Positions 6,901-51,521 of a stretch of 64,000 nt of DNA are shown here, piece after piece. Origin of the DNA: Armatimonadota bacterium (GTDB taxonomy: Bacteria; Armatimonadota; HRBIN16); NCBI GenBank assembly GCA_040289885.1, contig PSLZ01000006.1, positions 37,211-101,210 of the forward strand, in the 5' to 3' direction. Positions within the stretch are counted from its first letter, which is position 1; each line of letters opens with the position of its first letter. The notes beneath the pieces were generated by a model. That model did not search any database, was not told where the DNA came from, and was given only the letters and a program-made list of their open reading frames with translations. Both the position numbers and the translations under genes were made by a program.

Positions 6901-7173
6901 CCTGCAGATACCCTCAGCCTGCGCGTGACCGTCATGAACACCGGGGAAGCGACCTGGCTACCGGCAGGCAAACGCGAGGTAAGCCTGCACACCTCTTGGG
7001 GAGCAGAGGCGCGAATCGAGCAAGCTGTGGCGCGTTACGAACAGGTATCTCTGCAGGTGCCTTTGGCGTCTGGTGCACAAAGCCCCGCGCGGATGCGGAT
7101 GGCGCTGAAGACCGAGGAGGGCAAGATTCTGGGCTTTGGGGAGCAGTGCCTCTTGAAAATAGTATACAAATAA
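3976..7173 (+). CDS. Secreted glycoside hydrolase, clan GH-A (GH5-like TIM barrel), with an N-terminal signal peptide.
   Basis: An ATG at 3976 with RBS aggagggg at 3963-3970 gives MRHLGWCTIMVCLFAVSACAEP (signal). The ORF-track start at 3952 is a TTG. Catalytic-core motifs: GINFWPLW, FNVLSVQYTH, and KPVFWAEFGAS, where the EFG motif is nucleophile-like as in GH5. About 1065 aa. Confidence 0.7.
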   Translation: MRHLGWCTIMVCLFAVSACAEPTIGILHFSERQPTNLQQAIRDAVPRAQVVLVSVDAFASGRLPQGVSLLVVPEAHRLPAMVGEPLQAWIRARKGVLFVSDAIPLQTWLYRAKTRWVERQEALLELATWRPLWQGQFPPVSAWLRATNAPHIATSWSRVDTPHGTGWRITVPQLSGWCTYNLRMEPPFREGETLMSFWAKGDANTRALSIEWQERDGSRWVATVALSTAWQRFALSASDFAYWPDNPSKGRGAPGDHLQPQNAVGLSIGLAQSFASYPPNTPLEATIADIRIGKIAQVLPEPPRFVLEGIAPAYKFYTDSRGRPRSVMRYCGAGIGGEAPGRRILTPLGERCCLFLSAQGDTAGGLWGWIPASEANARKLATLLHPALRGWHLLRAGTAQFGFWLGEPVQYGAEVANRSTQPVHLRLTARLSSPAKPAMTRTLSVHLQAGERRRVLFPPGALSEGEWRIAVTATADNGARDSIEHSFHVVGRPPEMPLIEVREGRFYRAGKPFYAHGINFWPLWIAGQEEPGEYWQYWLSPGQYDPSAVERALRIAKQVGFNVLSVQYTHLSQAPQLVDFLYRASRLGIYVNLFITAGHPFGFDADTLKALIQTARLPQWGNLFAYDIAWEPVWGTHAERKRFDSAWRAWIVEQYGSIENAERDWGYHLPREDGEVTNPTDEQILNDGAWQGMVAAYRRFLDDHVNRAYWRVVRFIRSIDPSRLIGARTGYGGNGNPWADIRIPYDLLAGAPFLDFVSPEGYSLAENWQNFRAGGFITAYARWAGHGKPVFWAEFGASIYPQTTPERIAYQRNVYEWMYRMIEESRADGSAGWWFPGGLRVDENSDFGIVHPDGTLRPAAKVAQQWAQRLAQIPQQPDTRDVHVITFDRDLHPRGFSQVWARHRQEYLQAVAGGKRVVLRTAGTGTTSENVPLVAVGEVACNGSNPPKYLNAQILRIEAVHANGETREIGPDQPLPADTLSLRVTVMNTGEATWLPAGKREVSLHTSWGAEARIEQAVARYEQVSLQVPLASGAQSPARMRMALKTEEGKILGFGEQCLLKIVYK

Positions 7174-7305
7174 TGGTATACTTTATGTGGTATGTCTACA
7201 CGACATGCATCAGTACTGGCGGAGACATGCTGTTGCGGGGCGGCGCGATGGTATCCGCCCCGCTGGGGAGGACTGTTCAGCTTGATACAGGAGGGAGAAA
7301 CGACG

Positions 7306-7824
7306 ATGGCATTCAACTTTAAACGCTACCTGATCAAGGTGCAGGGTGGACGCTACTATCTGCCCGTTTCCGCGCGGCTGGTATGGTTTCGTGAGGAGCA
7401 TCCGAGCTGGCGTGTTGAGACCGAGCCGCTGGAGCTGGACGTGGAGCACGGTATCGCCATCTTTCGGGCGCGGGTGATGGACGAGGACGGCAACGTACTC
7501 GCTACCGGCACCAAGATGGAGACGCGCGAGGGCTTTCCCGACTTCATCGAAAAGGCGGAGACGGGCGCTATCGGTCGTGCGCTGGCGGTTGCGGGTTTTG
7601 GCACACAGTTTGCGCCCGAGCTATCGGAAGGCGGTGTGGCACATCCGGTAGATTCCCCGGTAGGCGCCCTGCGTGAGCGGGAAAAGCCTCGTGACCTGCG
7701 CTGTTCCGACTGCGGCGCGGTCATCACGGAGGGCGTGTACAAGCTTTCGGAAGACCGCTTTGGCCGCCCCCTATGTGCGAACTGTCAGAAGAAGCACACC
7801 CCGCTACCCCAGCAGAAGGTGTAG
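7306..7824 (+). CDS. Rad52/DdrA/Sak-family single-strand annealing protein homolog with a C-terminal topoisomerase-type C4 zinc ribbon.
   Basis: ATG at 7306 with RBS ggaggga: MAFNFKRYLIKVQGGRYYLPVSARLVWFREEHPSWRVETEPL...FIEKAETGAIGRALAVAGFGTQF. The pattern EKAe.gAi.RAL...FG corresponds to the conserved EKArKEAVTDGLKRALRSFG segment of Rad52 and to EAEKGAFSDALKRAAVQFGIG of Deinococcus DdrA. The C-terminus CSDCGAVITEGVYKLSEDRFGRPLCANC is a zinc ribbon. Confidence 0.5.
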   Translation: MAFNFKRYLIKVQGGRYYLPVSARLVWFREEHPSWRVETEPLELDVEHGIAIFRARVMDEDGNVLATGTKMETREGFPDFIEKAETGAIGRALAVAGFGTQFAPELSEGGVAHPVDSPVGALREREKPRDLRCSDCGAVITEGVYKLSEDRFGRPLCANCQKKHTPLPQQKV

Positions 7825-7837
7825 GGTTGGGTCGGTT

Positions 7838-7865
7838 CCCCTCTCCCGCCGCGGCGGGAGAGGGG
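7838..7865. terminator. Bidirectional GC-rich hairpin between convergent genes.
   Basis: cccctctcccgcc gc ggcgggagagggg is a perfect 13-bp stem with a 2-nt loop. It lies between the stop of the Rad52-like gene (7824) and the stop of the 2277-aa gene (7880). Confidence 0.6.
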
Positions 7866-7879
7866 CAAGGCTATAACCG

Positions 7880-10800
7880 CTACGGCACCACTACGTCCGA
7901 GTACAACCTCGGACTAAACGCCTCGAAGAACAGATCGCTGGTACCGCCGCGGGTGCTGTTCCAGAACAGCCATACCTTCGGTTCGAACTCGTCCTTCAGC
8001 GCGAACAGGTTGCTTTCGCTGGTTGCACCGACCAGCGGCACCAATGCCTGCGAGCCTTCAGTGGCTTCGGAGGTCTCATCGATCCAGCGCACCACGCCCA
8101 CTACCGTGCGCGGGTTGGGCTCAGGATTGCCCTGCGCGTCCACACCGACGTAGGTGATGCCGACCAGCTTGCCCTCATCCGCTTCGGTGAAGTAGATGCG
8201 CCCGCGGGCGAAGTCTACCTCCACCGGTCCGACCTCTGCGCTGATACCGTTCACCACCACTCCCGACACATCGGGGCGTCGCTCGCCCTGTCCGTCGGTG
8301 ATGACCGGCGTGTAGACAGGTGTTGGCAGTTGCACCCCCAGGCGCATGGTCTTCGCCACAAACACCTCAGCAGGGGCAGAGCCAGTGGACTTGCGGTAGA
8401 ACAACCACAACCGGTCCACAGGCGGCGACTGGGTCGGGTTATTCAGCGCGGGCAGGATGTACTTCCAGCGCGGGTTCTGCGATTTTTCCAGCCCGCCGGT
8501 GGGTGCACTGTTTGCACCGGCGTAGAAGGCAATGGGTTGTGGCACCGGCACGCCGTCGTTGGGCACGAGCGAGTTCCAGCCGTGGTTAGCTGTCAGGCGC
8601 ATGGCGCGCGGCGTGTAGTCGGCGAAAACCACATCGGTGCGAGCTGGCGCACGGTACGGGAAGGTCACCGTTCCCGCCGATAGGTCGATGACCGCCTGCC
8701 AGTCGATCTGCGTGCGCGCACTGTTGGTATAGCGGGTCAGGTAGAGGATGCCCGTGTTGGAGTCGAACCGCTGGTCGTACCAGTACACGGCGGGATTGCC
8801 TGATTGCTGGATGTCGTTCGCCGCCAGCGGATGCGGGTCGCCCACGCGCCAGATGCGGATGCGGTCGTTTCGCGCCCAGGAGAGGTCGCGCGACATCCAG
8901 ACGTTGGTCGTTCCGATGCGCTGGAGCACCTCTCCGCGTACCGGGGGCAGGTTGACCGGCACCAGCCTGCCGCCGCCTCCCAGCCTGAAGCGGGTGAGCA
9001 GAATCTCATTGGTCTGGCGCGTCTTGGTGGAAGCAGTATAAATGACGTCGATGGCGCCCTGGCGCGGGATGGCCATCGGCTCGAAGGCGTTGGTCACCAC
9101 AGCGGGCACGGGCAACTGCTGATCGCGCGTCCATGCGCTGGGGCTCAGCGGGTTGCCGAGGCAGGCGTTATAGTATATCGTGTAGCGTCCGCTGGCACCG
9201 CTGTACCAGAACATCACGGGCACGCCGCCAACCACCGTGACGCGCGGCTGGAATCGCGGCAGCGCCGCATCGTTGCCCAGCGCAAAGGGCGTTCCGGGCA
9301 CGCCATTCACTATCGGCGCAACGAAGGTCACGTTCTCCACGAGGACGGAGCCATCGCTCTGACGCTTCGCCGCTTGCCCCTGCCACAGCAGGTAGGGCTG
9401 TCCACCCGTCACAAAGAAGGTGGGCGCATAGTGCTTGATGGAGGACGGGATGACCGTGCCCGGCAGGGTGGTAAACAGTTGGCCGTATTTGTCGCGCACC
9501 GCGCTGTTGGTGGGGTCGCGAGGATACTCCACACTGCGTCCGCTCCACCACTGCGTGGGCGAGGCAGGAACCCAGACGCCGCGCTGGGCGTCCCGCGGCA
9601 GAACCGCCACCTGCAGGAACCAGGCGTTACTGCCGGATGGTTGAGTCTCGCGGTAGCTGCCGGTTCCGTCTTCCACCACGCGGTTCCGGCTCCAGTTACT
9701 GCTCCACGCCAGAAGCATGCTGTCCGCGCTCATCAGCGCAGAGGGTTGCACGTTCGCTGCGAGGTAACCCGGCTGTCCGGGCTGAGGCGGAATGCCCTGC
9801 CAGACTGTATCCACCTGTGGCAGAGAGCCGCTGGACGGGGCATTGGTCAGGCGGGACTCGGTGACCGTTACCTTCACCCGCATGGTCGGCTCACTGACCG
9901 GCTGTGCAGGCTCGTTGTTCGCCAGAACGCCGAGTACGTAGGGGTTCCAAGACGCCGCCTCGAAGACGCGAATCAGGTTGCTGTAAGTTCCCGCCGGTGT
10001 GCCCAACGGAACCTGCACGCTGACCAGCGGTTTGGTAGTTGGCACATCGTCGAACGCGCCCCCCGCGGCTTTCGGATAGGGTTTATCGGGGATAGACAGC
10101 ACGGTGGGACTGCTATCCGGGCGTGGTTTGTGCAGGGTATGCATGCCTGGGAAGCCGTTATACTGGGGCGGTCGCATGGTCAGCCACATCGGGTCGTAAA
10201 CGGCGTCGATAGAGGTGAACACGTTCTGCTGGACCACGCTACCGTCCGACCGGCGCACCCAGCCGGCGGTCAGCGCAGGCTTGTGGAAGGTGAAAGTTGG
10301 GTCGCCGATGGGGCTGACCTCCCAGTAGAACGGGTTCACTTGGTCGCTCCTCAGCGTGACGGGCAGAGGGTTCTGGAAGACCGGGTTGCCCCCCGCATCC
10401 AGATAGTCCACCGAGCCGACGGCGCGCACGTTGAGCAGGTTGACGTTACTGAGACTGCGCACCGTGAACGGCTTCCAGAACGGCTTCAGCGCGCGGTACC
10501 ACGGGTCGTTCTGGTAGACGGGGTCGCTGTCCGAGATGGGCGGACGGAATGGGTGCGTTGCTGGGTCGGAATGGATGCCGAAGCCGTGTGGCACCGCTCC
10601 GATATCGATGGTATCCTCCTCCACCCGCAGGCGCATGTCCGGGGGTATCCCCAGCGTCACGCGGAACTCGCGATACGGTTCCTCACGGGTAACCGGCGGC
10701 GTCTGGCGCAGTCCCGGGCCTCCGGGCAGGTCGAGCTGACCGTTGTTGTTCACATCCACGTAGATGCGGATGGGGGTTCGGAAGCGAGTGGCGTATCCGC

Positions 10801-13800
10801 GCGCCGTGAGCGGATTGGTGCCGTCAAAGCCCACCAGGTTAGCGGGCTGGAAACGCGGTACCTGCACCATCACCTCGCTGGTGGTGGGTACCAGCGTCCA
10901 GCTTGTCCAGTCGGGAGCGACACCCACCGGGTCGGTTGGCGGAGCCAGTGCGGCGCCGCGCGAGGAAGCGTAGAGGTCCACTCCGCCTGCCGACACTCGC
11001 ATTGCCCGCTCTGGGATGTCCGGGTAGTCTACGCTGGTGTTAGGAATACTCACCGGCAGGTCGTCCCAGGGCAGGGGGTTAATCACCGCCAGCGAGCCGT
11101 CGTCGTTGTTGTGCCAGGCGAGGTTTGCTCGCGCAACGCGCACCCGGAGCGGGTCTCCACCCAGCAAGGCGACCTTCGAGCGGTCGGCGATCTGGATCAG
11201 CCTGCTACCGCTTGCCCCGTGAGGCACCAGTCCCATCACCACCCAGGCGAGGTTTTTGCCCGCGTTGCCGTTCATGCTCAGCTCTTGCGGCACCGAACTG
11301 CCCACCACAGTCTGCCCGATCCATCCCACTTCGAAGGCGGGGTTGGGGTTGATAGTGCCGTCGGGGTTGAGGACGCGCAGTGCCAGCGGGTGAGCGATGG
11401 TGAACTCGAAATAGGGGTCAGGCGTGCGCTCCAGGGTCATGGTCGCCTGCTGTTGCCCGCCGCCGGTGGTGGTTGTAGCGGTCACGCGCACCGCGGCGGC
11501 GTAGCGTGCGCCGGGCGTCCAGGCATCGCCGTCCTGCGTCGGGACGATGCGGAAGGCATGATACGCCATCCACTTCTGGTTGACGCCCACATCGGTTCCG
11601 TAGGGCACTACGCCCACCGTACGGTTCACCGTGGCGGCGCGACTGCGCAGGCTCAGGGTGACGGAGCGCGCAGGTGGCACCAGCCCCTGCATCCCGTAGG
11701 CGATGACGTAGACCGTATCGCCCCACTCGTAGCCGATTTTGCGCGTGTGCCCTCCCGCGACCACCTCTTCAGGGGTGCGGGTGCGGCGTTGAACGATGTC
11801 GGCATACTCCTCCGCCGTAAAGACCTCCACCTTCAGGTTGGTCAGTTCCGGCGACAGCGAAGCATCCACCAGTTCCGCCCCCGGCGGCTCGCCGGGCGTC
11901 AGGTAGCCGCCCGTTGGTGAGAAGGCGTAAATAATGCCATCGTCTCCAGCGAAATACATCCAGTCGTTTGCCACGGCGGGCGAGGCAAACACCGCCTCTC
12001 CCAGCGTCTGCCAGCCCCAGAGCACGTCGCCGCGCACGTTCAGCAGATTGCCGTTATTGTCCAGTACCTGCCGGAAGGTTCCCGGTCCGCTGTTAAAGGC
12101 ATTGAGCGCGATCACCTTACCGTCCATCAAGCCGAACACGATAGCGGGCAAGGGGAGTGTGCCGGTAGCCGAGCGGCTGGGGATGATCTGGGTGTAGGTG
12201 ATGGACGAGTAGATGGGCGCACCCATCGAGCCGCTGGGGGATGCGACGGGGTTCATCGGGTCGGTGACATCCTGCCACACCAGCACCGTCTTGCCGTCGC
12301 CGGTGCCTTGCGCGTCCAGCGCGTAGACGGTACCGCCCCTGTCGCCAATGAACACCACATCGCGCACGCCCGTAATTGTGTTGACCTGGGGCGCGACCGT
12401 CGGCGAGGAGTAGAGGAAAGGCGCTACCGGGCTCTCATCGCCGGCGGTGCTGACGGGCGGGTTAGCAGCATAGGGCCACACCCACACGCGCTCGGTGCGC
12501 CGGCGTCCGGTGCCCCTCTCCCTCACACAGTATACCCGTCCGTCGGAGGCGGCGAAGTAGACCTTACCGTCGAAGATGGCAGGCGTGGTGGAGATGGGGT
12601 CCAGAGGCAGTTGCTCGTTTAACGCGGGGTCGTTACCCGAAGCAGGCTCGTATTTGCCCGGGTAAATCCAGCGCTCGGTGGTCGTGCCGCCCGAGCCTTC
12701 GGCATCCAGCGCGTACAGGCGTCCGTCCAGGCCGCCGACGAAGATGGTCGGGCCAACGCCGCTGGTGCGGTTATAGGCGGGCGAAGAGACGAAGCCGTTC
12801 ACGATGGCTGGTTTGTCGGCAGAGGGATATATCCAGATTCGGTCGGTCGTGCCGGCATCGTTCGCGTTGAAATCGCCGTTTCCGCTGGCGTCCAGACAGT
12901 ACACACGCCCGTTGGAGTTGGCCACATACACCCGCCAGTCGGGTGAGCCGCTCGTAGCGATGTTGACCACCAACGGCGAGGAGTAGCCAAACGAGCCAAC
13001 GACGGGTCTTTCGTTCAGTGGCTCTTCCGGATACACCCAGTAGGAGAAGGTAGTGCCATCGCCGTTGCCCACCGCGTCCAGCGCGTAGACTTTGCCATCG
13101 TTCGCTGTGAAGAAGACCACCTGTCTGTCGGCAACGGTTCCGCCCGGTAGGCGCATCGGCACGGTTTGCACCACGGGTGTGGAGAAGATGCCGCTGGCGC
13201 CGGTTCCCTGCTCCACAAATCGCACCGCATCGGCGATCACCACGCGCCCTTCGGTGACCTCGCTGGCTTTACGGCAGTAGTTGACCAGTTCCACGTAGTT
13301 GCTCGTGCCCTGCCGCATCCGGTAAGTGCCGAGGCTGAACCACTGTCCACCGGCGGTGTTCTGCGTCTGGTCCAGTTCCACCACCGTGTCGCCGTCTTCG
13401 TGGTGCACGATGTAGCGGGCGACCGTTGTTCGGTTCACGCTACCATCGCTCTGCGGCAGCCAGACGTAGACCGTATATTGTGCCGTTGTTGCGCCGTCAG
13501 AGGGCTGGAGGTCGGGTTGCCAGCGCACGCGCAGCCAGGTGGTGGGATCGGTGCCTCCGGTGACCGTCGCTTGCAGATAGCTGGTGCCGAAGGGATCGGG
13601 CTGGGGGGCAGGTGGAGCGGACCATCCCGGGTCTGCCTGAAAGGTTGGGGCACCGTCGGCGTTGTCCACCGTGACCGCACGTTGACCGGTGACGTTCAGC
13701 GGATAGCGCCAGACCACTCGCCCTGCGTTGTCAAAGCAGTACATCACGCCGATCTCTATGCTAGCGGTGGGGTCATCGGTATCTGGCACGCGCTCGATGC

Positions 13801-14713
13801 GCCCAATGTACACCCTCTGCACCAACTGTCCGGGCGCAACCTGTATCGTCGCCGCGACGGGCGAGGAGTAGAACGCGCCGAGGTCGGGCATGAAGCGCAC
13901 ACCGTCGAACACCACCAGCCGCCCGGCGTCGTCGAAGTGGCCGTCCTCATCGGTGTGGGTGGAGGTGTTGTAGGCGTAGACCTCTACGGGACGACGCCCG
14001 TCAAAGGGAAAGGTCAGGTCACGGCGCAGTTGCGTGCGCTCCCACTTGTTGGTAGTCGAGTTGAAGAGATACGCTGCGCTTCCTGCGCTTCCGAGGCGGA
14101 CCCATCGCCCGCCAGCGGTCTGGTTTATGACTAGGATCACCTCGCCGTAGGTGTTCGTGCCCGTCGGATAGCGCACTTTATAAACCGCTTCGCGCACGTT
14201 GCGGTTGCCTGCCGTGCCGCTGGAGGGGAACCACACGGCGATTTGATAGCGGGTGGGTTTGGCAACAAGCGGGTTGTAGGCGGGGTCGTTGGGATCCAGC
14301 TCGTTCGGGGTGGCGTTGCGCCATCGGACGGTCACCGTTGCGCCGCTGGTGGGGTCATCGGCGTTGCTGGGGTTGACCGCCGTGGCGTAGTCGTAGGAGT
14401 CGCGGAAACCGTCGGTAATGGCGTTGGCATCGGTGATGTTGATAGTGGTCACCGCGCCTTGCAGGACGGTATAATCCCCCGCGCGGTTCAGTCCGTCCCG
14501 GTCTATCTCCAGCGTAATGCCTCTATCTTGCTGGGCGGGCCACCACCAGCGCAGGTATGCCCTGCCCGGACCGGGCTCGGTGCTGAGGTTTGTCGCACCC
14601 GTACGCTGGGGATTGAGGCGGAACATCGGAAAGTCGTCCGCCCACACGATGCCCTGTGTCAATAGCACGCTTCCGATAAGCCATGCCACGAACCAGTTTT
14701 TTGCTATTGCCAT
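7880..14713 (-). CDS. Giant secreted protein (2277 aa) with a PQQ-like seven-bladed beta-propeller. Candidate PilY1-like pilus-associated adhesin.
   Basis: Signal peptide MAIAKNWFVAWLIGSVLLTQGIVWADD. Repeated blade motifs: DGKVYALDAVGNGDGTTFSYWVYP, NGRVYCLDASGNGDFNANDAGTTDRIWIYP, DGRLYALDAEGSGGTTTERWIYP, DGRVYCVRERGTG...VWVWP, GGTVYALDAQGTGDG, DGKVIALNAFNSG, DGIIYAFSPTGG. It is the last gene of the co-directional pilin-like operon. Confidence 0.75.
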   Translation of the reverse strand: MAIAKNWFVAWLIGSVLLTQGIVWADDFPMFRLNPQRTGATNLSTEPGPGRAYLRWWWPAQQDRGITLEIDRDGLNRAGDYTVLQGAVTTINITDANAITDGFRDSYDYATAVNPSNADDPTSGATVTVRWRNATPNELDPNDPAYNPLVAKPTRYQIAVWFPSSGTAGNRNVREAVYKVRYPTGTNTYGEVILVINQTAGGRWVRLGSAGSAAYLFNSTTNKWERTQLRRDLTFPFDGRRPVEVYAYNTSTHTDEDGHFDDAGRLVVFDGVRFMPDLGAFYSSPVAATIQVAPGQLVQRVYIGRIERVPDTDDPTASIEIGVMYCFDNAGRVVWRYPLNVTGQRAVTVDNADGAPTFQADPGWSAPPAPQPDPFGTSYLQATVTGGTDPTTWLRVRWQPDLQPSDGATTAQYTVYVWLPQSDGSVNRTTVARYIVHHEDGDTVVELDQTQNTAGGQWFSLGTYRMRQGTSNYVELVNYCRKASEVTEGRVVIADAVRFVEQGTGASGIFSTPVVQTVPMRLPGGTVADRQVVFFTANDGKVYALDAVGNGDGTTFSYWVYPEEPLNERPVVGSFGYSSPLVVNIATSGSPDWRVYVANSNGRVYCLDASGNGDFNANDAGTTDRIWIYPSADKPAIVNGFVSSPAYNRTSGVGPTIFVGGLDGRLYALDAEGSGGTTTERWIYPGKYEPASGNDPALNEQLPLDPISTTPAIFDGKVYFAASDGRVYCVRERGTGRRRTERVWVWPYAANPPVSTAGDESPVAPFLYSSPTVAPQVNTITGVRDVVFIGDRGGTVYALDAQGTGDGKTVLVWQDVTDPMNPVASPSGSMGAPIYSSITYTQIIPSRSATGTLPLPAIVFGLMDGKVIALNAFNSGPGTFRQVLDNNGNLLNVRGDVLWGWQTLGEAVFASPAVANDWMYFAGDDGIIYAFSPTGGYLTPGEPPGAELVDASLSPELTNLKVEVFTAEEYADIVQRRTRTPEEVVAGGHTRKIGYEWGDTVYVIAYGMQGLVPPARSVTLSLRSRAATVNRTVGVVPYGTDVGVNQKWMAYHAFRIVPTQDGDAWTPGARYAAAVRVTATTTTGGGQQQATMTLERTPDPYFEFTIAHPLALRVLNPDGTINPNPAFEVGWIGQTVVGSSVPQELSMNGNAGKNLAWVVMGLVPHGASGSRLIQIADRSKVALLGGDPLRVRVARANLAWHNNDDGSLAVINPLPWDDLPVSIPNTSVDYPDIPERAMRVSAGGVDLYASSRGAALAPPTDPVGVAPDWTSWTLVPTTSEVMVQVPRFQPANLVGFDGTNPLTARGYATRFRTPIRIYVDVNNNGQLDLPGGPGLRQTPPVTREEPYREFRVTLGIPPDMRLRVEEDTIDIGAVPHGFGIHSDPATHPFRPPISDSDPVYQNDPWYRALKPFWKPFTVRSLSNVNLLNVRAVGSVDYLDAGGNPVFQNPLPVTLRSDQVNPFYWEVSPIGDPTFTFHKPALTAGWVRRSDGSVVQQNVFTSIDAVYDPMWLTMRPPQYNGFPGMHTLHKPRPDSSPTVLSIPDKPYPKAAGGAFDDVPTTKPLVSVQVPLGTPAGTYSNLIRVFEAASWNPYVLGVLANNEPAQPVSEPTMRVKVTVTESRLTNAPSSGSLPQVDTVWQGIPPQPGQPGYLAANVQPSALMSADSMLLAWSSNWSRNRVVEDGTGSYRETQPSGSNAWFLQVAVLPRDAQRGVWVPASPTQWWSGRSVEYPRDPTNSAVRDKYGQLFTTLPGTVIPSSIKHYAPTFFVTGGQPYLLWQGQAAKRQSDGSVLVENVTFVAPIVNGVPGTPFALGNDAALPRFQPRVTVVGGVPVMFWYSGASGRYTIYYNACLGNPLSPSAWTRDQQLPVPAVVTNAFEPMAIPRQGAIDVIYTASTKTRQTNEILLTRFRLGGGGRLVPVNLPPVRGEVLQRIGTTNVWMSRDLSWARNDRIRIWRVGDPHPLAANDIQQSGNPAVYWYDQRFDSNTGILYLTRYTNSARTQIDWQAVIDLSAGTVTFPYRAPARTDVVFADYTPRAMRLTANHGWNSLVPNDGVPVPQPIAFYAGANSAPTGGLEKSQNPRWKYILPALNNPTQSPPVDRLWLFYRKSTGSAPAEVFVAKTMRLGVQLPTPVYTPVITDGQGERRPDVSGVVVNGISAEVGPVEVDFARGRIYFTEADEGKLVGITYVGVDAQGNPEPNPRTVVGVVRWIDETSEATEGSQALVPLVGATSESNLFALKDEFEPKVWLFWNSTRGGTSDLFFEAFSPRLYSDVVVP

Positions 14714-14812
14714 ATGGTCTCCACCCTCACTTCACTCGGCAGTGTGCTCTACATCTTGTTTGACGAAGCGGTTCAGGGATTCGTTCGTGTCGCTCCGCTA
14801 TGCTATCGCCCG

Positions 14813-17800
14813 CTAAAACGGTCTATCCGCGTAGAAGGGCGCGTCGATTCGGTAGGAATCACTGCTGATGACCTCATTGACGTTCGCCCAGCTTTTCACC
14901 CGTCGCGGTGTCCACCACACGATGTCTTCGGGGCTCATGCCATCGGTCAGATAGGTGTGCGGTCCGTCGATCTCGTTCACCACCTGCGTTGCGCCGGGGT
15001 TGTAGTTGCGGGGGTCTATCTCGAATACCTCTCCGCTGAACCGTCCGCTGTCAGGCAAGAGCCCGCGGTAGGCGTTGGTTATCAGGTAGTGCCCGTTTGG
15101 CAGGCGCACTGCGCTCACAGCCCAAAGCGGGATCGCCCGGCTGATGTAAGTATCCACAGGCTGAGGTCCGGTGATGCGGTCACGCAGATGTGTGAGACTG
15201 CGGTAGACCTCATCGGTCAGCCGCCACTTGATGCGCCACTGGTTGGGCGCGAGCCGCTCGAGGTCGAACACGCCTTTATCGGTGGCGAGTACGATGTTAT
15301 AGACGACGGTTCCCGTGGCGCTATCATAGCGCACCGGATACACCTGCACGCTGTTAGGACTGCCGATGGGCACTCGCCTGTTGGAGCCGATGGGTTCGTT
15401 GGGCAGGAGCACCTCGCTGAACGCCTCGGTGATGTCTAGTCCTGCGCCGATGGTACGCACCATCACCGTGCCCCCGACGCCTTCCTCACCGGTGCCGTCC
15501 GGACGCACACGATAGTTCGCCACCGTCGCCACCAGCGTGAACACCGGCGCGCCACCACTGTAACCCGACACGATGCGCTGGATGCCCGTGTAGCGATACT
15601 TGCGCCTCTCCGCACCGCTTGCGCTCGTCCAGAACAGCTGTCGCGCGGCAATGAGCGGTCCAACTGCTCCGGTGGTGGGGTCGGCGACGTAGCGGTCGAT
15701 AACGTCAATCAGCCGCCCGTTGCCCGTGTCGGCAATCAGGTAGTGCACCCAGAACTCCAGGTCCTGCGCGTCCTCGAAGGGATTGAGGCGGTTGCCTCCC
15801 GAGGACTGCTTGGGCACATATTCGGTGTAGACACTCACGTCCTGCGGCTCGCGCAGTTCGTGTGGGTCACCCGGCGTCAGCGGTGCCGGTGGCTTGGTGG
15901 GGTCGGCCAGGTCGAGGCGCGGCGGGTTTTCAAACCGGCGCAGTTCCGCGGTGACGTTGCCGGACCTGTCCACCCACACGATGCGGTTGTTGCCGGTATC
16001 CACCACAAGCATCTCGTTCGCGCTGGTACGGTATACCCTTGCGGGGCGCGCCACAGAAGTGGGCGTGACGCTTATCACCGGCGCGGAGCCACCCGACGCG
16101 GTTCCCCACAGCCTGCTAGCGTCCATGCTCCACGCCACCTTGCCGCCCGGATCCATCTCCAACAAGCGATGGCTATCGGCGATGAGGGTCATCTGGCGTT
16201 CGAACACCTTGATACCCGTGTCGCCTACCGCCGCGAGCAGACCGTTGGATACCGCGACCGCCGCGATGCCCTGGGTGCCCACCTGCGACCGACGCAGTTC
16301 GTTCAACGTGGTAGTTAGCAGGTTCATCAGCGCGGGTCCCCACGTTGCCGGGTTGTTCGGGTCGTAGCCGTAATCGGCGGGCTTGCCCAGAGCGGGCCAC
16401 AGCACGTGGTTCGGCTTATCCGAATCCTGGGTGATAAGGGGCACGTCATCACCCTGCTGGATGCTGGGGTCGGTGGCGGTGGGGTCCGCCGAAACTGCGA
16501 TCACCGTGGAAACCTGCACCCCCGGCGCATCGACCTGGGCAGACAGATAGACCACATTGCCCGCCACCACCGGCGACGCCTTCACCCGCACCGCCGGGAG
16601 GAACATAAACCACTTCAGGTTGCTGTATTGTGAAGGCTGGATAAAGTACTGGCGCGGGGGCTCGCTACCGGCGGTCACTACCACCAGCGTGGGCTGCGAC
16701 AGGCTGAAGGCGAATATCGCGCCGCCACCACCTGAACCGGGCATCATGTTGTTGATGGTAATCACCCCAGCCGGTCGGTTCACGGAGTACTGCGCTGGCT
16801 GGACGTAGGTGTATTGCGATGTGCCTCCTGCACTGCGTATCACGTCCACCTGCCGAATCTGCAGGGTAGCGTTGTTCGGGATGCCAACAGGGTTGCCGTT
16901 TTCATCTCGCAGGCGCAGTTCCACGCGCGGGTTGTTGCTGAACGCCATCAGCACCGTGCCGGGGATCTCCCCGACAGGCGGACCGAAGTTCGCCCGTGCC
17001 TCGGCGACGGCGTAGGTGGTATCGCCGAACACGGCGGGCGGCGCGGTGAACCCGCCCGGATTGATGCCGATATACTCACTGGGGTTCCTCAATGGCGTGC
17101 CAAAGAGCGTGTGCTTGAGCTGCAAAGAGGGTGGCGCTGGCTTAAAATCCGGATATCCGCCATGTAGTTGCCAGCGCCAGCGCATCACCGTCCGGTTGCC
17201 CGGCTGTTCTAGGATAGCGTAGATACTGCCATTATCGGTGGTGTAGATGACGTTATCGGCGGCGTCCAACGCGGGCTGTTCGATGATGGTCTTGCTAGGG
17301 TTGGGCACGATGTCCGCGATGCCCACGCTGGTGCGTACAGGAGTGCCCGGCGACTTGCCCCAGTCGATGAAGTAGTTCATGATGACCACGGGACTGGTTG
17401 CCGGCGGATTGGTGAACTGGATGGTTCCCGCGTTGACCGTCACGCGCGAGTCGGGCAGGTTATACCGGTCTACCAGCGCGAGCGAGCCGTCCGTCTGGCG
17501 ATTGTAGACCCACACCACTGGGTTCAGCGCGGTGTAGGGGCTCGATGGGTCTGCCAGGAAGATATGCAGTTGCCGTCCTTGCGCCCGGGTGACGAAGGTG
17601 CGCTTGTCGTTGTTCGGGTTGCTCAACACCTCGCCTTTTGTGCCCAGCCAGAAGGCGTAGACCGCACTGGTGAGCGTGCCCGTAGTGGAGCTGGGCGCGG
17701 TGGAAACATATGCCATCAGGTCAGAGGCGATGGACCCTTCGCCCGTCTGCCCCCTATCCTGCACATAACCAAGGGTGACACCGCCACGTATCGGTGGGAG

Positions 17801-19351
17801 GTTTGTTCGGGGTTGTATCCAGTCCTGTCCCGAGCTGCCGGAGTTCATCACGTCGCCTGTAGCCGCCCACAGCACGTACAGCCTTCCGTTGTTACCGCCC
17901 GTGCCCGCTTGCAGAGCCGGCACCACGAGCAGTCCTTCCGCCGAAGCGGGAACTGGGACGGTGTCGGTGTCAAACGTGACGGCGTTGGGCAGGGTGCGCT
18001 CCCAGACGAGGTTCGAGCCGTCCGAGAGCCCTGCGATGGGCGAGTTGATGCCGCCGGTGCGAGGAAAGGCGCGATATGCCTGAACCGTGCCGTTTTTCAG
18101 CGTCACCACAACCAGCGCACGCTGGAGCGGGTCGTTGCTGGTGGTAGGGATTTCCACGATCTGCGGGGTGGAAACCGGCTCCGACCCCAGCGGAGCCTCC
18201 CAGATTTCATCGTAGGGCGTGCCTCTTTGCCACAGGTCGGGCAAGCCATCGTCTTCGTTGCCGTCGCCGTCGATATCGCGGCGCGGGTTGGCGTCAAAGC
18301 AGTAGAGGCGCAGTCCACCCAGCGGCGAGGAACCGACCACGAACAGCGCACCGTTGTAAAACACCGGGGCGGAGGCGAACGTGCCCACCGCCTGCAGTCC
18401 GGTCAATCCCCATTTCTCCACCAGAGGCGCGCCGATGTCCTCGAAAGTGCCGGAGCCACGGCGTGCGTTCTTGCGTTGGGCGGTGAACGCCGACGCCCAC
18501 TGCACCACATTGTAGCCAAACTTCAGGTTCGGGGGCGCCGCCGCGGCGAAGTTATCGCTGGCTACAGGCACACCCGGCGGTGCAACCGCTTGACTGAGCG
18601 CGTAGGCGATACCGATGGAGGAGACCACCACCGCGCTGCTCCCGTATTGTCCCGCCACGAGCACCGGTCGGCGATTATCCTGTCGCACCGCGATGGGAGC
18701 CAAGATACCCGGCGCAGGGGGAGCGTTGAGATCCGCGCCAACAGCACTCAGCGAGCCGCGAACGCCCGCTCCCATCTGGTTCAGCTCGCCCACGCGAATC
18801 GGGTAAGGAGCGTTCACCAATGGGTGGGTGGGATAGACCAGCAGACCGTTCGTCAAGCCTTCATTATTGAACTGCAGGTCTAGGAAGAGCGGGGCGCGTG
18901 GGTCGAGGGTATAAGCTGTCTGGTTATCGATCCAGAGCAGACCGCCGGCGTCCACAAACTTGCGCAGTTTTTCGCGCTGTTCGGGGGTAAAGGCAATGGC
19001 ACTGCCCTGTGTGGCGACGACTGCGGCATCGAACTGGCGCAGGTCTTCCATCGAGACCGTGTCTAAGTTGACCACCCAGTAGGGCGCCGTGTTCTTGCGG
19101 CTACCCGGTGCTGCCAGCGGGTTCACAAAATCCCAGCCGGCGGGCTTATAGTCCGTTCGCCGGTCCAGCACATACCACACGAAGGGCGTCAGCACTGGGT
19201 TATTGCCGATTTGTAGCACGCAGACGCGGATCTGCTTGCGCACGGCGGTGTAAGTATAGGCATCGCCCTGGGCGGTGCGCACCAGCCCCAACCAGATGGC
19301 GAAGACGCCAAGCCATATCAGCACAAACGGTCGGTTTCGCATAGCCATCAC
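14813..19351 (-). CDS. Giant secreted protein (1512 aa) with a beta-propeller and a DxDxDG calcium-binding-like loop. Candidate PilY1-like protein.
   Basis: Signal peptide MMAMRNRPFVLIWLGVFAIWLGLVRTAQG. Propeller-like repeats (GALFVVGSSPLGGLRLYCFDA..., GRLYVLWAATGDVMNSG). An acidic loop DIDGDGNEDDGLPD resembles the Ca-binding loop described in PilY1. It sits 99 nt upstream of the 2277-aa gene and 72 nt downstream of the GspK-like gene. Confidence 0.7.
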   Translation of the reverse strand: MMAMRNRPFVLIWLGVFAIWLGLVRTAQGDAYTYTAVRKQIRVCVLQIGNNPVLTPFVWYVLDRRTDYKPAGWDFVNPLAAPGSRKNTAPYWVVNLDTVSMEDLRQFDAAVVATQGSAIAFTPEQREKLRKFVDAGGLLWIDNQTAYTLDPRAPLFLDLQFNNEGLTNGLLVYPTHPLVNAPYPIRVGELNQMGAGVRGSLSAVGADLNAPPAPGILAPIAVRQDNRRPVLVAGQYGSSAVVVSSIGIAYALSQAVAPPGVPVASDNFAAAAPPNLKFGYNVVQWASAFTAQRKNARRGSGTFEDIGAPLVEKWGLTGLQAVGTFASAPVFYNGALFVVGSSPLGGLRLYCFDANPRRDIDGDGNEDDGLPDLWQRGTPYDEIWEAPLGSEPVSTPQIVEIPTTSNDPLQRALVVVTLKNGTVQAYRAFPRTGGINSPIAGLSDGSNLVWERTLPNAVTFDTDTVPVPASAEGLLVVPALQAGTGGNNGRLYVLWAATGDVMNSGSSGQDWIQPRTNLPPIRGGVTLGYVQDRGQTGEGSIASDLMAYVSTAPSSTTGTLTSAVYAFWLGTKGEVLSNPNNDKRTFVTRAQGRQLHIFLADPSSPYTALNPVVWVYNRQTDGSLALVDRYNLPDSRVTVNAGTIQFTNPPATSPVVIMNYFIDWGKSPGTPVRTSVGIADIVPNPSKTIIEQPALDAADNVIYTTDNGSIYAILEQPGNRTVMRWRWQLHGGYPDFKPAPPSLQLKHTLFGTPLRNPSEYIGINPGGFTAPPAVFGDTTYAVAEARANFGPPVGEIPGTVLMAFSNNPRVELRLRDENGNPVGIPNNATLQIRQVDVIRSAGGTSQYTYVQPAQYSVNRPAGVITINNMMPGSGGGGAIFAFSLSQPTLVVVTAGSEPPRQYFIQPSQYSNLKWFMFLPAVRVKASPVVAGNVVYLSAQVDAPGVQVSTVIAVSADPTATDPSIQQGDDVPLITQDSDKPNHVLWPALGKPADYGYDPNNPATWGPALMNLLTTTLNELRRSQVGTQGIAAVAVSNGLLAAVGDTGIKVFERQMTLIADSHRLLEMDPGGKVAWSMDASRLWGTASGGSAPVISVTPTSVARPARVYRTSANEMLVVDTGNNRIVWVDRSGNVTAELRRFENPPRLDLADPTKPPAPLTPGDPHELREPQDVSVYTEYVPKQSSGGNRLNPFEDAQDLEFWVHYLIADTGNGRLIDVIDRYVADPTTGAVGPLIAARQLFWTSASGAERRKYRYTGIQRIVSGYSGGAPVFTLVATVANYRVRPDGTGEEGVGGTVMVRTIGAGLDITEAFSEVLLPNEPIGSNRRVPIGSPNSVQVYPVRYDSATGTVVYNIVLATDKGVFDLERLAPNQWRIKWRLTDEVYRSLTHLRDRITGPQPVDTYISRAIPLWAVSAVRLPNGHYLITNAYRGLLPDSGRFSGEVFEIDPRNYNPGATQVVNEIDGPHTYLTDGMSPEDIVWWTPRRVKSWANVNEVISSDSYRIDAPFYADRPF

Positions 19352-19423
19352 CCTTCTCTCGGCTCAAATCTGCTCGGGATCGATTCCCCGTTCACGCAAG
19401 CGGTGCTAAGGCGGAAAGCCATC

Positions 19424-22120
19424 TCACCTCATCTCCCCCATGTAGAGCAGTCCCGGGCAGACCGGCAGGCGCGGCATCGGGGGCAGTCGCCGCCCGTATT
19501 GATCGACGCGCACCATCCCTGCCGCGGTGAACACCGGGTCGTACTCCATCACCAGGTTATAGCCCATGGGCAGGTTGCGCGTCGGGTCGCGCGGGTCGCG
19601 CAGGTGGAAGGGCGGGATCGGGATACCGGAGTTGCCGAACTGGGGCGGTATCCAGCCCCACTTCTTCAGCCACTCGCCCTGGTCCTGGATTGCCCATGGC
19701 AGGTTTTCGGCTATCGCGCCTCGGATGGTGATGCGGATGTCCAGCGGTTGTCCGTAGAACGGATACATCGGTGTCAGCACGTTGTACATCTGCCGGCGCA
19801 GGTTCTGGTCTACCGAGGACGGGCTGGTGCCGACGGGGAAGGTGTCGCGCGGGTCGGTGTTGAACCACTCGCCGGGCAGAACCACGAACGAGCCCTCCTG
19901 CGCGTACATCAGCGCTTCGATGGCGATGTCCAAGGGCACCACCGCCACCCGGCTCAGATGGTACTCGTTGGCGGGAGCATTGCCCCATCCGCTGTTGACC
20001 TCGAAGGTCAATCGGTTTTCCGCCCCCGGTTGCACGTTCAGCGTGTAATCACTGCGCGGGTTGGTGGGGTGCGTGGGCGGGTTGGTGTTGAAGGGCGCCA
20101 TATTGCGCAGGAGTTCCAGCCCCAGGTGCTCGTAGTTCACGCCCGAAGCGTTGACCAGATAGATGGTCGGCAGTCCCAGCGCATCCGCCAGACCGCCTGG
20201 GAAGCGGTACAGGTCCTCGTCCAGAACGCCGTTGCCGTTGGTATCGTTCACCGGGTAGTTGACATGCAGGAAGATGCTGGTCTGTTCGTTTTCGATAGCC
20301 GCGTGGCGCACCAGCAGTTTCAAGCCGTGCGGCCAGGTGTTGCTGTAGTAGTTGTACAGCGCGATGGCGGACGAGAAGACAAAGGATTGCCGCTGGGTGG
20401 GCAGTAGCGCACGATGCCACGATGGGAACTTCAGAGGCGCGTCCTGCTCGTTCCAGCTGCCTGCCTCCGTGCCCAGTTCGGGGTCGATAAACAGGGTGGT
20501 GTTGAGCACCACGTTCTTTTTCGCCAGCAAGGCAATGGCGCTGGTGTTATCGGGCTGACCGTTCGGCAGGCGTGGCTTCATCAGGTTGCCCTCGATGAAG
20601 ATGTCGCCTCCGGAGACCACTGTCAGCTGTTTGCCCAAGGGGATTATGCCGCGTATGCGCACGTTACCCTCGGCGTAGATGACCCCCGAGAACGGCGTCA
20701 CGAAGGGCAAGCCCACCGCCGGTTTGTTCAGCGACGGGTCCAGCAGGTCTTGCGACAACCGCCCATCCGGCAGATAGGTGCACACCATGGTGACCGCATT
20801 GGTTGGCGCACCGTTGGGAGCACGCCATCGCCCGCGCGTGAGCTGGATGGTAAAGCCAGTGGGGTTCAGGCGGATGATCGCCCCTGGTGGCACGTAGTAG
20901 GGTCCCTGCCAGTTGCGCGAGTCTATCAGTCGCAGGAACTCACTGCGCACGGTGGGACCGCCGAACAGTCCCGGTTCACGCAGGAGGTCGGCGCGGTTGT
21001 TGATGTAGATACCTCTGCCGAAGCCGAACAGCCCGCTATTGCGCCCGCCAACCAGCGCGCCCGAGTTGCGCGTCATGCTCCAGTAGCGGTTGACGTTGGT
21101 GGCAGGGTCGGGCAGGTCGATAACCGGCGGTTCGAGGCGTGTGATAGAGCGTCCGCCGCCGTCCACGCCGACGCCCGTGCGTCCGTCGCGCACGATCCCG
21201 CCATAGGTGTTGAAGGTGACGCTGTTGCTGGGCAGGAGGGGATTATTGTTCACGGTTACCTGCGCTCTGGGCGCGAGCAAGATATCTCCCGCTACCTCCA
21301 GCCGGTCACCGTTTTGCGGGTTCAAGGTAAGCTCCACCCCGCCGTGCCATCGCACGTTGCCGTTGATTCGGATAGGGGCACCGCTGGTGTTACTGCCCCA
21401 TATCAACCGGACGGGCAGGGGGTTGCCGTTGACGTCATGTCCGACGATACCCTCCGGCACGCCCAGTTCCACCACCGCGTTGGCGCGATTGTCCAGATTG
21501 GTCACGAAGCGCAGGTAATCGGTGATTCCCATGGCTTTGTAGGCGACCATCTCGCGCTTCAGCCCGGTGGCGGCGCTGGTGAGCATCGTTGGGTCGTTAG
21601 GGTCAATTCTGCCCACACGCCCGATGGATTCGATCTTTATGAACCGCGAGAGGGGACCCGATTCGGGGTCGTTCGGGTTATAGGGGCGCGGGTTGTAGCT
21701 GACTCGGATCAGCGCACGCCCGTTTTCGAACAGCACCCGGCTGTAGCCCCCACTGGGTCCCGCGGTGGGTGTGCCGCACGGGTTGAGTGTGGTGGACTCG
21801 GTGGGGGCGTACGGGCGGAGCCACGGATAATCCGGGTCGCGGCACTGGTCGGGAGGCAGGTTCGCTGGCACCGGGCGCCAGTCTGCGCCTTCCTCGCTGT
21901 AGGTCAGCTGTTGGTCGGCGTACTGGATGCCTGCTTCCGCGAAGTATTGTGCGTCGGTCACCCTGCCACTGCGTGCGGCGTTTTCCAGGTTGCGCCCGAT
22001 AATCGCCACGAACAGCGCACCCATGAACATCATCACGAACATGACCACCACCGCCACAATCAGCGTTTGACCACGCTGTGTGTGAGTGGAACAGGGTTGT
22101 AACCGTACTGGGCTGTTCAT
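19424..22120 (-). CDS. GspK/PilX-like minor pseudopilin, unusually large (898 aa).
   Basis: N-terminus ...QRGQTLIVAVVVMFVMMFMGALFVAIIGRNLENAARSGRVTDAQYFAEAGIQYAD. It resembles the GspK N-terminal segment (QRG + hydrophobic helix, no Glu+5) followed by A..AEAG. It lies 22 nt downstream of the previous pseudopilin gene. Confidence 0.55.
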   Translation of the reverse strand: MNSPVRLQPCSTHTQRGQTLIVAVVVMFVMMFMGALFVAIIGRNLENAARSGRVTDAQYFAEAGIQYADQQLTYSEEGADWRPVPANLPPDQCRDPDYPWLRPYAPTESTTLNPCGTPTAGPSGGYSRVLFENGRALIRVSYNPRPYNPNDPESGPLSRFIKIESIGRVGRIDPNDPTMLTSAATGLKREMVAYKAMGITDYLRFVTNLDNRANAVVELGVPEGIVGHDVNGNPLPVRLIWGSNTSGAPIRINGNVRWHGGVELTLNPQNGDRLEVAGDILLAPRAQVTVNNNPLLPSNSVTFNTYGGIVRDGRTGVGVDGGGRSITRLEPPVIDLPDPATNVNRYWSMTRNSGALVGGRNSGLFGFGRGIYINNRADLLREPGLFGGPTVRSEFLRLIDSRNWQGPYYVPPGAIIRLNPTGFTIQLTRGRWRAPNGAPTNAVTMVCTYLPDGRLSQDLLDPSLNKPAVGLPFVTPFSGVIYAEGNVRIRGIIPLGKQLTVVSGGDIFIEGNLMKPRLPNGQPDNTSAIALLAKKNVVLNTTLFIDPELGTEAGSWNEQDAPLKFPSWHRALLPTQRQSFVFSSAIALYNYYSNTWPHGLKLLVRHAAIENEQTSIFLHVNYPVNDTNGNGVLDEDLYRFPGGLADALGLPTIYLVNASGVNYEHLGLELLRNMAPFNTNPPTHPTNPRSDYTLNVQPGAENRLTFEVNSGWGNAPANEYHLSRVAVVPLDIAIEALMYAQEGSFVVLPGEWFNTDPRDTFPVGTSPSSVDQNLRRQMYNVLTPMYPFYGQPLDIRITIRGAIAENLPWAIQDQGEWLKKWGWIPPQFGNSGIPIPPFHLRDPRDPTRNLPMGYNLVMEYDPVFTAAGMVRVDQYGRRLPPMPRLPVCPGLLYMGEMR

Positions 22121-22142
22121 TTTGCGTACTCCCCTCCCGCTC

Positions 22143-24002: not shown

Positions 24003-24045
24003 CGGTGCCACTCCTATTTCACCCCTGATATGCTTTCCATTTCTG

Positions 24046-25881: not shown

Positions 25882-25914
25882 GCCTCCACCGCCTTTCGCC
25901 AGGTGGGTTGGTTG

Positions 25915-26700: not shown

Positions 26701-26719
26701 AGTCGGTCACCTCGTTCCT

Positions 26720-26966
26720 TTCCTGTCGGTTTTGACGACTCCTTTAAGAGCTTTGTTCCCCCTGCTTAAACAGGCTGTCGGTCGGGATCTGCAGTTCTGG
26801 TAATACTTCCGAGCGCACAGTGTCGCCTCTGCCGTAAAGCCCTATCCGTTCCTAGTGCAGGGCTCATGACCGGTTCCCCGTCGATGACTGCACAGGGTTG
26901 GTTGGTCTCCGGCAGGCGGAGCCATTCTTTATATGTCAGCCGTTTTACTGGAGAAGGTAGCGCCAT
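26720..26966 (-). pseudogene. Uma2-family (DUF820) endonuclease remnant. The N-terminal and C-terminal fragments are in different frames.
   Basis: MALPSPVKRLTYKEWLRLPETNQPCAVIDGEPVMSPAL matches the Uma2 N-terminal signature (TyeEyl.LPe....ElIdGel.vMSPa). A +1 frame downstream reads ...GDTVRSEVLPELQIPTDSLFKQ, the typical Uma2 C-terminus. The whole is only about 80 codons, against about 190 aa for intact members. This indicates an internal deletion with a frameshift. Confidence 0.5.
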
Positions 26967-26977
26967 CGGTACGCCTC

Positions 26978-35735: not shown

Positions 35736-35869
35736 GCTAAATATCTATGCAAAAGGAGGTGGTGTGGGTTACAGGATAAGTAGGTGTCCGCATGAGATTT
35801 ACTTTTTTCCATGGCGCAACGGTTCGTAAACCAATTTCATCACTTTACAAACAAGAAGGAGGGTGCCAC

Positions 35870-41348: not shown

Positions 41349-41546
41349 GATGTACCTCCTTTCGCGTATGCAAGAGCTCTCCATCACACCTATTATGCAA
41401 GAATCGTGCCAAAACCCTGCCTTTTGCGGATTTCGGCGAAAACAATGGTAATAATAACGGTTTTGAAAACGAAGATACAATCCTGCGAGATGTCCGGTGT
41501 ACGCTCCGGTTCCGAGTGGTAAATGCATACGTACCCGAACAAAGTA

Positions 41547-50166: not shown

Positions 50167-50169
50167 GGC

Positions 50170-51456: not shown

Positions 51457-51467
51457 GTTTCCCTCCT

Positions 51468-51521
51468 CCTGTGCCAAGCTATGCCTCTAACATTCCTGTG
51501 CCAAGCTATGCCTCTAACATT
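51468..51521. repeat. Perfect tandem duplication of a 27-nt unit (cctgtgccaagctatgcctctaacatt x2).
   Basis: It spans the junction between the nnr stop codon (inside unit 2) and the RBS of the FHA gene. Confidence 0.8.

Follow-up and report, generated by a model that had tools for sequence, protein, structure and literature searches.

We analysed a 64,000-nucleotide stretch of DNA (the window) from an Armatimonadota bacterium (assembly GCA_040289885.1, contig PSLZ01000006.1, positions 37,211 to 101,210 of the forward strand), in which two very large open reading frames (ORFs) follow a series of pilus genes. ORF A (14813–19351 (−)) has a GTG start and encodes a secreted multi-propeller protein of 1512 aa, the constant downstream partner of a pilin-like protein that we call X. 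ORF B (7880–14713 (−)) has an ATG start and encodes a secreted multidomain protein of 2277 aa, which often but not always accompanies A. A preliminary description of this region had presented the pair as the terminal genes of a pilin operon and as candidate giant tip adhesins of the PilY1 type. The ORF coordinates and lengths given there match ours exactly, as do the two short spacers behind the same-strand pilin genes: 72 nt between X and A (19352–19423) and 99 nt between A and B (14714–14812).

Both ORFs are genuine genes and not chance ORFs in high-GC DNA. A has 79 full-length relatives of 1400–1790 aa and B has 29 of 2100–2350 aa, with identities of 25–91%. All of these relatives that carry a taxon name belong to the Armatimonadota (Chthonomonadaceae, Fimbriimonas, Capsulimonadales). 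An exhaustive search with a profile of the C-terminal domain of A retrieved 396 cluster representatives at E≤1e-30, and the best 150 of them have the same architecture, with the domain running to the last residue of the protein. A 1038-aa ORF antisense to B (8804–11920 (+)) is a high-GC shadow ORF and not a gene, and similar shadow ORFs lie opposite A, X and the pilins.

Downstream of B, 15 nt 3′ of its stop codon, lies a GC-rich hairpin with a 12-bp core stem (7833–7879 (−); −46 kcal/mol, z −2.5). The gene beyond this hairpin is convergent (7192–7824 (+)). B is therefore the final operon gene in the window, and the hairpin is the probable end of the operon. The A–B spacer shows no stable RNA structure on folding (z +1.3), and A and B are likely to be co-transcribed with the pilin genes. 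A scan of positions 7100–27090 for consensus promoters and terminators gave counts at chance level and is uninformative on operon structure.

The genes upstream of A encode a type IV pilus machine, all on the same strand. In order of transcription, they specify a PilB-type assembly ATPase (30592–32361 (−); Pfam T2SSE, 455 bits, and MshEN, 74 bits), a PilT-type retraction ATPase (29376–30566 (−); T2SSE, 167 bits across the 396-aa protein), a PilC/GspF platform protein (28057–29292 (−); two T2SSF repeats, 220 bits) and a PilD prepilin peptidase (26978–28003 (−); A24_N_bact, 124 bits, and Peptidase_A24, 56 bits). Relatives carry a T2SSE gene of ~380 aa in the PilT position. The gene aroE (32492–33367) lies directly upstream of pilB, as it does in two related loci (L006 and L007). 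Next in the row comes a probable major pilin or pseudopilin of 261 aa (25915–26700 (−)), which has the leader SA↓FTMVE (the arrow marks the cleavage site) and matches Pfam N_methyl, DUF1559 and T2SSG, with a weak match to NCBIfam GspG. It is followed by two giant minor pilins, one of 611 aa (24046–25881 (−); leader YA↓FSLIE, an N_methyl match and a weak PilV match) and one of 622 aa (22143–24011 (−); leader AG↓FTLVE, N_methyl at 28.9 bits, weak HpsC and GspH matches). The leaders of all three pilins are class III and carry a glutamate at position 5 (Glu5). Another prepilin-like gene (308 aa, N_methyl and DUF1559) stands by itself on the opposite strand, ~3.4 kb past pilB (35792–36718 (+)).

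X, the last of the row, is a pilin-like protein of 898 aa (19424–22120 (−)). Its hydrophobic N-terminus, RGQ↓TLIVAVVVMFVMM, begins TLIVAVVV and lacks the Glu5 that is present in the 261-, 611- and 622-aa pilins. A pilin-like N-terminus without Glu5 is a hallmark of tip pilins of the GspK/PilX type, and by position X is the equivalent of PilX, PilK or GspK. The label 'GspK-like' that X had been given thus fits the position and the missing Glu5, but it has no counterpart in the family searches: X matches nothing in Pfam (including T2SSK and PilX_N) or NCBIfam (including GspK), and a profile search of the PDB gave no meaningful match. X has more than 279 relatives. The minor pilins of this cluster (611, 622 and 898 aa; 19424–25881 (−)) are giant, and their sizes are conserved across the Armatimonadota; minor pilins are usually ~150–300 aa long.

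The arrangement of these genes is conserved well beyond the window. In all seven related loci reached through protein look-ups, the gene order is aroE-pilB-pilT-pilC-pilD-pilin, then genes for minor pilins of ~600, ~620 and ~900 residues, then A and B. In two of the seven (L001 and L002), the X and A or the A and B genes overlap by 1–4 nt. These two loci also show what can lie beyond B. In L001 (Fimbriimonadales), B is followed directly by pilM, four small genes, a gene for an STN-domain protein, the secretin gene and aroK-aroB; in L002, the contig ends after pilM and four small ORFs behind B. The giant genes are therefore embedded in the pilus cluster and not appended to it. Their description as terminal genes of the operon holds for the window, where the hairpin follows B, but not in general, since the pilM block comes directly after B in these two relatives. 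The pilM-to-secretin block of L001, with aroK-aroB behind it (16550–24274), matches the pilMNOPQ-aroK-aroB linkage of Pseudomonas. The pilMNO-Q genes are found neither in the window nor in L003 and L004.

For a wider count, one genome per species was scanned with an alignment of the X family. X was found in 218 species genomes, and the best 80 loci were analysed by scoring their ORFs with hidden Markov models. At least 1 kb of downstream sequence was required to count the successor of X (68 loci) and at least 3 kb to count the successor of A (53 loci). A lies immediately after X in 67 of the 68 loci, and B follows A in 41 of the 53. Among the best 80 genomes, all records with a phylum label are Armatimonadota except one metagenome-assembled genome labelled Sedimentisphaerales, and many others are labelled only 'bacterium'. 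The exceptional record, labelled as Planctomycetota (L041; DATKWR010000502.1), carries a complete X-A-B module of the kind typical of Armatimonadota and is probably mis-binned, or else reflects lateral transfer. In loci without B, other genes take the place behind A. In L051, L059 and L070 it holds an ORF of 911–959 aa that is WbsX-like (PF14307), with a weak additional match to NPCBM_assoc in L051 and L070. A WbsX-like gene is inferred from ORF size only in L060 and L066, giving four to five such loci in all. A HemN-like radical-SAM gene occupies the slot in L040, L046 and L056, and in two loci it is filled by a giant ORF without assignment.

X thus has its constant partner in A, and B is a companion that is frequent but replaceable. 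The gene-order link of A and B to the pilin genes, already proposed from the window and now seen across the phylum, is the strongest result of this analysis. That the two proteins have no functional link to pili at all keeps only a small remainder of probability.

The leaders of A and B were judged by inspection of the N-termini for a basic n-region, a hydrophobic core and a cleavage site. Both look like Sec-type signal peptides, as had been proposed, and neither has the G↓FxxxE motif of a prepilin leader. In A, the peptide covers residues 1–29 (19265–19351 (−)) and ends at RTAQG↓D; the family consensus keeps an AxA motif behind a variable N-terminal stretch. In B, it covers residues 1–25 (14639–14713 (−)) with cleavage at IVWA↓DD.

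The mature part of A consists of three regions and a short tail. Residues 114–286 (18494–19012 (−)) form a DUF4159-like domain, which in A itself scores 23 bits, just below the 25.9-bit cut-off of PF13709, and is matched in 27 of the 31 family members scanned. Residues ~305–1000 (16352–18439 (−); boundaries approximate) form an irregular PQQ-like propeller with inserted beta-rich segments. Here the family profile finds weak matches to BamB and methanol dehydrogenase among PDB sequences, and Pfam PQQ_2 is matched in 6 of 31 relatives. The third region, residues ~1029–1481 (14909–16267 (−)), is a six-bladed NHL-type beta-propeller. Among PDB sequences, the family profile of A matches Pizza6, Brat and TRIM NHL domains at E-values of 1e-8 to 1e-3, and 4 of the 31 relatives match PF01436 (NHL). 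The domain is nearest to the six-bladed NHL/YWTD class, with TolB-type propellers lower in the same list. A structural model of residues 313–1512, built on 68 sequences, has a mean predicted local distance difference test score (pLDDT) of 85.8 and a predicted template-modelling score (pTM) of 0.82. Foldseek matched its PQQ-like region to Cake10, YxaL and tetrathionate hydrolase, and the model as a whole is similar to CPSF160, DDB1 and other multi-propeller proteins. With A as a single sequence, a search of PDB sequences returned nothing, and an NCBIfam scan of A gave no match. Pfam detected no catalytic family in A itself or in the 31 relatives.

Within the PQQ-like propeller of A, behind a blade strand, lies the motif DIDGDGNED (residues 359–367; 18251–18277 (−)), which has the form DxDxDGxxD. 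The longer segment DIDGDGNEDDG (residues 359–369) had been singled out as a calcium loop of the PilY1 type, and this observation stands: the segment fits the pattern D-x-[DN]-x-[DN]-G-x-x-D, and 52 of the 68 family members have this motif in the same place. The motif makes the loop a candidate calcium-binding site. The blade motif G.vYALDA.G.G...W.YP that had been ascribed to both proteins is clear in the eight blades of B; in A it is present only loosely, as about five degenerate matches.

Are A and B then relatives of PilY1? In recent papers, PilC/PilY1 proteins are defined by their C-terminal propeller (IPR008707/PF05567), Sec leader, variable N-terminal part, calcium site in the propeller and C-terminal plug of 10–12 residues; the importance of the DxDxDGxxD calcium motif of PilY1 is stated in PMC13190605. 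By comparison with PilC/PilY1 (3HX6), A is likewise a large non-pilin protein with a leader for export by Sec, and its gene immediately follows that of the last, Glu5-less minor pilin; it also shares a DxDxDGxxD-loop propeller, a conserved extreme C-terminus and variable extra domains. The differences are also clear. The calcium-type loop of A sits in the central PQQ-like propeller, and its C-terminal propeller is a six-bladed NHL domain. The locus encodes two giant proteins in tandem. As had been remarked, both exceed PilC/PilY1 in size: A is about 1.3–1.5 times and B about twice as large (PilC is 108–110 kDa).

The same gene position, the same type of calcium loop in a propeller, the large size and the Sec leader could be explained if A or B were a true PilC/PilY1 homologue whose propeller has drifted beyond detection. 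The family searches speak otherwise. PF05567 has no match in A or B at E≤0.1, nor in any of the 31 A-type and 20 B-type relatives at E≤0.01, and no PF05567 protein occurs in any locus examined (the window and the seven look-up loci). When the family profiles were compared with all PDB sequences (E≤10), they matched NHL, BamB and PQQ chains, and no PilY1 chain was among the matches listed (for B, 60 of 63 rows). Since, in addition, the loop-bearing propeller of A is central and not C-terminal, we regard extreme divergence from PilY1 as very improbable. Homology of A and B to PilY1, as the preliminary description would have it, is not supported; the likeness they share is generic to all propellers.

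The extreme C-terminus of A is conserved in its own right. The last 12 residues (1501–1512; 14816–14851 (−)) read RIDAPFYADRPF, and the family consensus is ...RGLxxPVFADRR-COOH. In 131 of 142 A representatives, the last 14 residues contain a core P-x-[FYSAIL]-[AS]-x-[RK], typically followed by one more residue. The linker ahead of the peptide varies in length among relatives and is modelled with low confidence (pLDDT 53–57). In PilC/PilY1, the last ~10–12 residues form a plug that anchors the protein by adding a beta-strand to PilK/PilX. The tail of A could by analogy act as a plug in the manner of PilC/PilY1 or MshQ, a hypothesis that we do not count as evidence. The C-terminus of B was also considered as a plug: its last six residues are disordered in the model, but the tail after a conserved PRF varies in sequence and length. 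B was ranked below A as a plug candidate because its tail is variable and because B is not universal.

B is built differently. A first Golvesin_C-like domain at residues ~100–276 (13886–14416 (−); boundaries approximate) precedes blade 1 of a PQQ/BamB-like propeller (~310–346), and a second Golvesin_C domain at residues 347–500 (13214–13675 (−)) is inserted between blades 1 and 2. PF25275 scores 90.3 bits against a 31.6-bit cut-off in these two stretches and is matched in 15 of 20 relatives; residues 101–209 align with 373–463 (E 4e-6), marking an internal duplication. Blades 2–8 span residues ~505–945 (11879–13201 (−)), and the eight blade motifs are at residues 322, 540, 602, 664, 725, 794, 865 and 926. 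Among PDB sequences, the B family profile matches Cake9 (2e-79), 3HXJ (2e-24) and BamB (~1e-14), and 18 of the 20 relatives match PQQ_2; a single-sequence search with B found only designer propellers. Of the remainder, residues 1078–2277 are modelled as beta-rich domains with a pLDDT of 76.5. This part includes a calcium-loop-like motif, DVNNNGQLD (DxNxNGxxD; residues 1320–1328; 10730–10756 (−)), in which D1320 and G1325 are invariant in the family.

The C-terminal region of B, residues ~1649–2271 (7901–9769 (−)), is modelled as a propeller of the sialidase/GH32/GH43 fold type and ends in a PD40-like blade, WSSTRxGxxDLY. Foldseek matched it to glycoside hydrolases of families GH32, GH43 and GH117 and to sialidases, at E-values of 2e-7 to 4e-5 with target-normalised template-modelling (TM) scores mostly between 0.26 and 0.43. 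No Asp-box motif is present in B, and no glycosidase family of Pfam is matched by B or its 20 relatives. An active sialidase was considered for B, but the absence of Asp-boxes and the low TM scores of the fold matches make this no more than a possibility. Residues ~1900–2277 (7883–9000 (−)) contain the invariant or near-invariant positions R1908, D1984, D2010, Y2033, R2039, R2101, R2124, E2233 and R2255. This set of Arg, Tyr, Glu and Asp residues is reminiscent of a sialidase-type active site.

The domain content of B raises the possibility that A and B are not parts of a filament but cargo or cell-surface glycan-active proteins, exported by the pilus machine working as a type II secretion system, as with pullulanase PulA, which is encoded beside the pul genes. 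The Golvesin_C domains resemble carbohydrate modules, the best fold matches of the C-terminal propeller are to GH32, GH43, GH117 and sialidases, the 261-aa pilin is GspG/DUF1559-like, and a WbsX-like glycan enzyme with NPCBM_assoc sometimes fills the slot after A in lineages without B. Several observations argue against this explanation. The conserved cluster includes a PilT retraction ATPase; classical type II secretion systems are not known to have an ATPase of this kind. The near-invariable placement of A after X, with codons that sometimes overlap, is a better fit to a stoichiometric partner than to cargo. The want of a catalytic family in A, and of Asp-boxes or glycosidase matches in B, also counts against it, and the fold matches of B are generic as well as low in TM score. 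We therefore consider export as cargo unlikely.

The BamB-like character of B points to another alternative. At the profile level, residues ~505–945 resemble BamB and other eight-bladed PQQ propellers (3HXJ, quinoprotein dehydrogenases). B nevertheless differs from BamB in its length of 2277 aa, its Sec leader without a lipobox, the Golvesin_C domain within the propeller and four further regions around it. B was rejected as an orthologue of BamB, a lipoprotein of ~390 aa: it scores 27.7 bits against the 285-bit cut-off of TIGR03300 and has no lipobox. Some relatives of B are named BamB in databases, and on our analysis these are mislabelled.

The resemblance could nonetheless mean that A, B or both form a periplasmic or outer-membrane scaffold, a platform of the BamB, TolB or NHL type that assembles or aligns the secretin complex away from the tip. 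The BamB/PQQ-like profile of B, the NHL/YWTD class of the C-terminal propeller of A and the TolB-type matches further down its list are compatible with such a role, for which domains of this kind are often used; in L001 and L002 the genes stand immediately ahead of pilM, and in L001 the run reaches the secretin. However, neither protein has a lipobox or membrane anchor, and in size and in their adhesin-like build of several domains they differ from known alignment-complex proteins. A is, moreover, tightly coupled to X and not to pilMNO-Q, which the window, L003 and L004 lack. We judge the scaffold explanation to be quite improbable.

Most likely, A and B are Sec-exported non-pilin accessories serving a type IVa-pilus-like machine conserved throughout the Armatimonadota. 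More specifically, and with somewhat better than even confidence, we favour a reading in which A is a partner of the tip minor pilin X that resembles PilY1 or MshQ in role without being homologous to either, and B is an accessory that is variable and binds glycans. For a protein that takes the place of PilY1 without being its homologue, as proposed here for A, the best precedent is MshQ of the MSHA pilus of Vibrio cholerae. MshQ has ~1200 residues and is not homologous to PilY1; its gene comes immediately behind those of the PilIJK-type minor pilins, and its C-terminus is predicted to add a beta-strand to the PilK homologue (PMC13533445). No family match ties A or B to MshQ in these searches, which included no direct comparison with an MshQ sequence: the NCBIfam result is empty for A and holds only sub-threshold BamB matches for B, which rules out any MshQ-type model in that library.

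Clusters in which pseudopilin genes accompany a very large protein are also known in the Verru_Chthon cassette (TIGR02596–02600) and in the cyanobacterial HpsA–D system. The minor pilins of the window have weak matches to Verru_Chthon cassette proteins B, C and D and to HpsB and HpsC, all far below the cut-offs. A, B and X were each considered as Verru_Chthon cassette protein A or HpsA and rejected, with no NCBIfam match at E≤0.1.

On the favoured reading of A as partner of the tip pilin, A would be exported by Sec and would join the minor-pilin complex, formed by the 611- and 622-aa pilins and X, at the inner-membrane platform. There it may help to prime filament assembly, and it would then be carried through the secretin on the pilus tip, where its calcium-loop propeller and NHL propeller could form an adhesive or sensing head. 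B would be an additional surface protein, associated with or dependent on the pilus, that binds and possibly cleaves glycans. A glycan role of B is suggested by the Golvesin_C domains, the PQQ-like propeller and the sialidase/GH43-like propeller. What the analysis shows is the structure of the genes, their domains, the gene order across the phylum and the lack of homology to PilY1; the export route, the tip location, calcium binding, adhesion and any role of the A tail are inferred.

Several observations weigh against this picture. With masses of ~160 and ~245 kDa, A and B would be bulky loads for a secretin to let through. In about a fifth of the lineages, B does not adjoin A. X resembles GspK, PilX and PilK in its N-terminus and its position only, as far as sequence comparison goes, and neither A nor B has a relationship to PilY1 in sequence or, in the modelled parts (A residues 313–1512 and B residues 1078–2277), a specific one in structure. 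The tail of A is a further difficulty. In the monomer model, its last ten residues form a short strand with a pLDDT of 86, so that the tail is apparently docked in cis and may do no more than close the NHL propeller as its last strand. For PilC, in contrast, a model of the protein alone has a disordered tail.

A bolder form of the proposal would accommodate the docked tail. A would be the founder of an undescribed priming and tip family, spread across the Armatimonadota and unrelated to PilY1, whose tail can leave its docking site in cis and add as a beta-strand to X; B would be a pilus-displayed module that binds or cleaves glycans. We regard this version as possible but doubtful.

Genes elsewhere in the window concern other functions. 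In a 677-aa ORF (54461–56494 (+)), MerT is joined to an HMA domain and to a MerA-type pyridine-nucleotide-disulphide oxidoreductase, an apparent fusion of mercury transporter and reductase. A Pup-ligase family protein (56614–58131 (−)) and a proteasomal AAA ATPase with Mpa/ARC-like OB domains (61642–63342 (−)) together indicate a Pup-proteasome system in this genome. Two adjoining proteins of 485 and 435 aa (48709–51477 (−)) have C-terminal FHA or YscD-cytoplasmic-like domains. Behind a CarboxypepD_reg domain, a 453-aa protein (40167–41528 (−)) carries a type I dockerin, a module that is uncommon in bacteria other than the cellulosome-forming Firmicutes.

We found no description of proteins of the A or B type in the literature on Armatimonadota or Armatimonadetes pili, PilY1, Golvesin or DUF4159; in the paper on the Fimbriimonas genome, the pilus genes named are no more than PilB, C, D, Q, M and T, beside 79 PulG-like genes. 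Work from 2026 has shown that a small C-terminal strand lets PilC/PilY1 license the assembly of the pilus and remain at its tip, as is predicted also for MshQ, and it suggested that further tip subunits could be recognised by their position after a PilK-type pilin. PilY1 and MshQ already exemplify a giant non-pilin protein encoded behind a pilin of the PilK type.

The locus represents a conserved candidate tip module, made up of the three giant minor pilins, their partner of 1500 aa and, in most cases, a second protein of 2100–2800 aa. If the proposal is correct, a different propeller protein would have taken on the role of PilY1 independently. If the tail of A acts in trans as a plug, licensing by such a plug would extend to a phylum of the Terrabacteria through a non-homologous protein. 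The Armatimonadota are poorly studied and mostly uncultured, and their cultured members bear fimbriae. For these bacteria, the module would provide a handle on how they attach to surfaces or polysaccharides.

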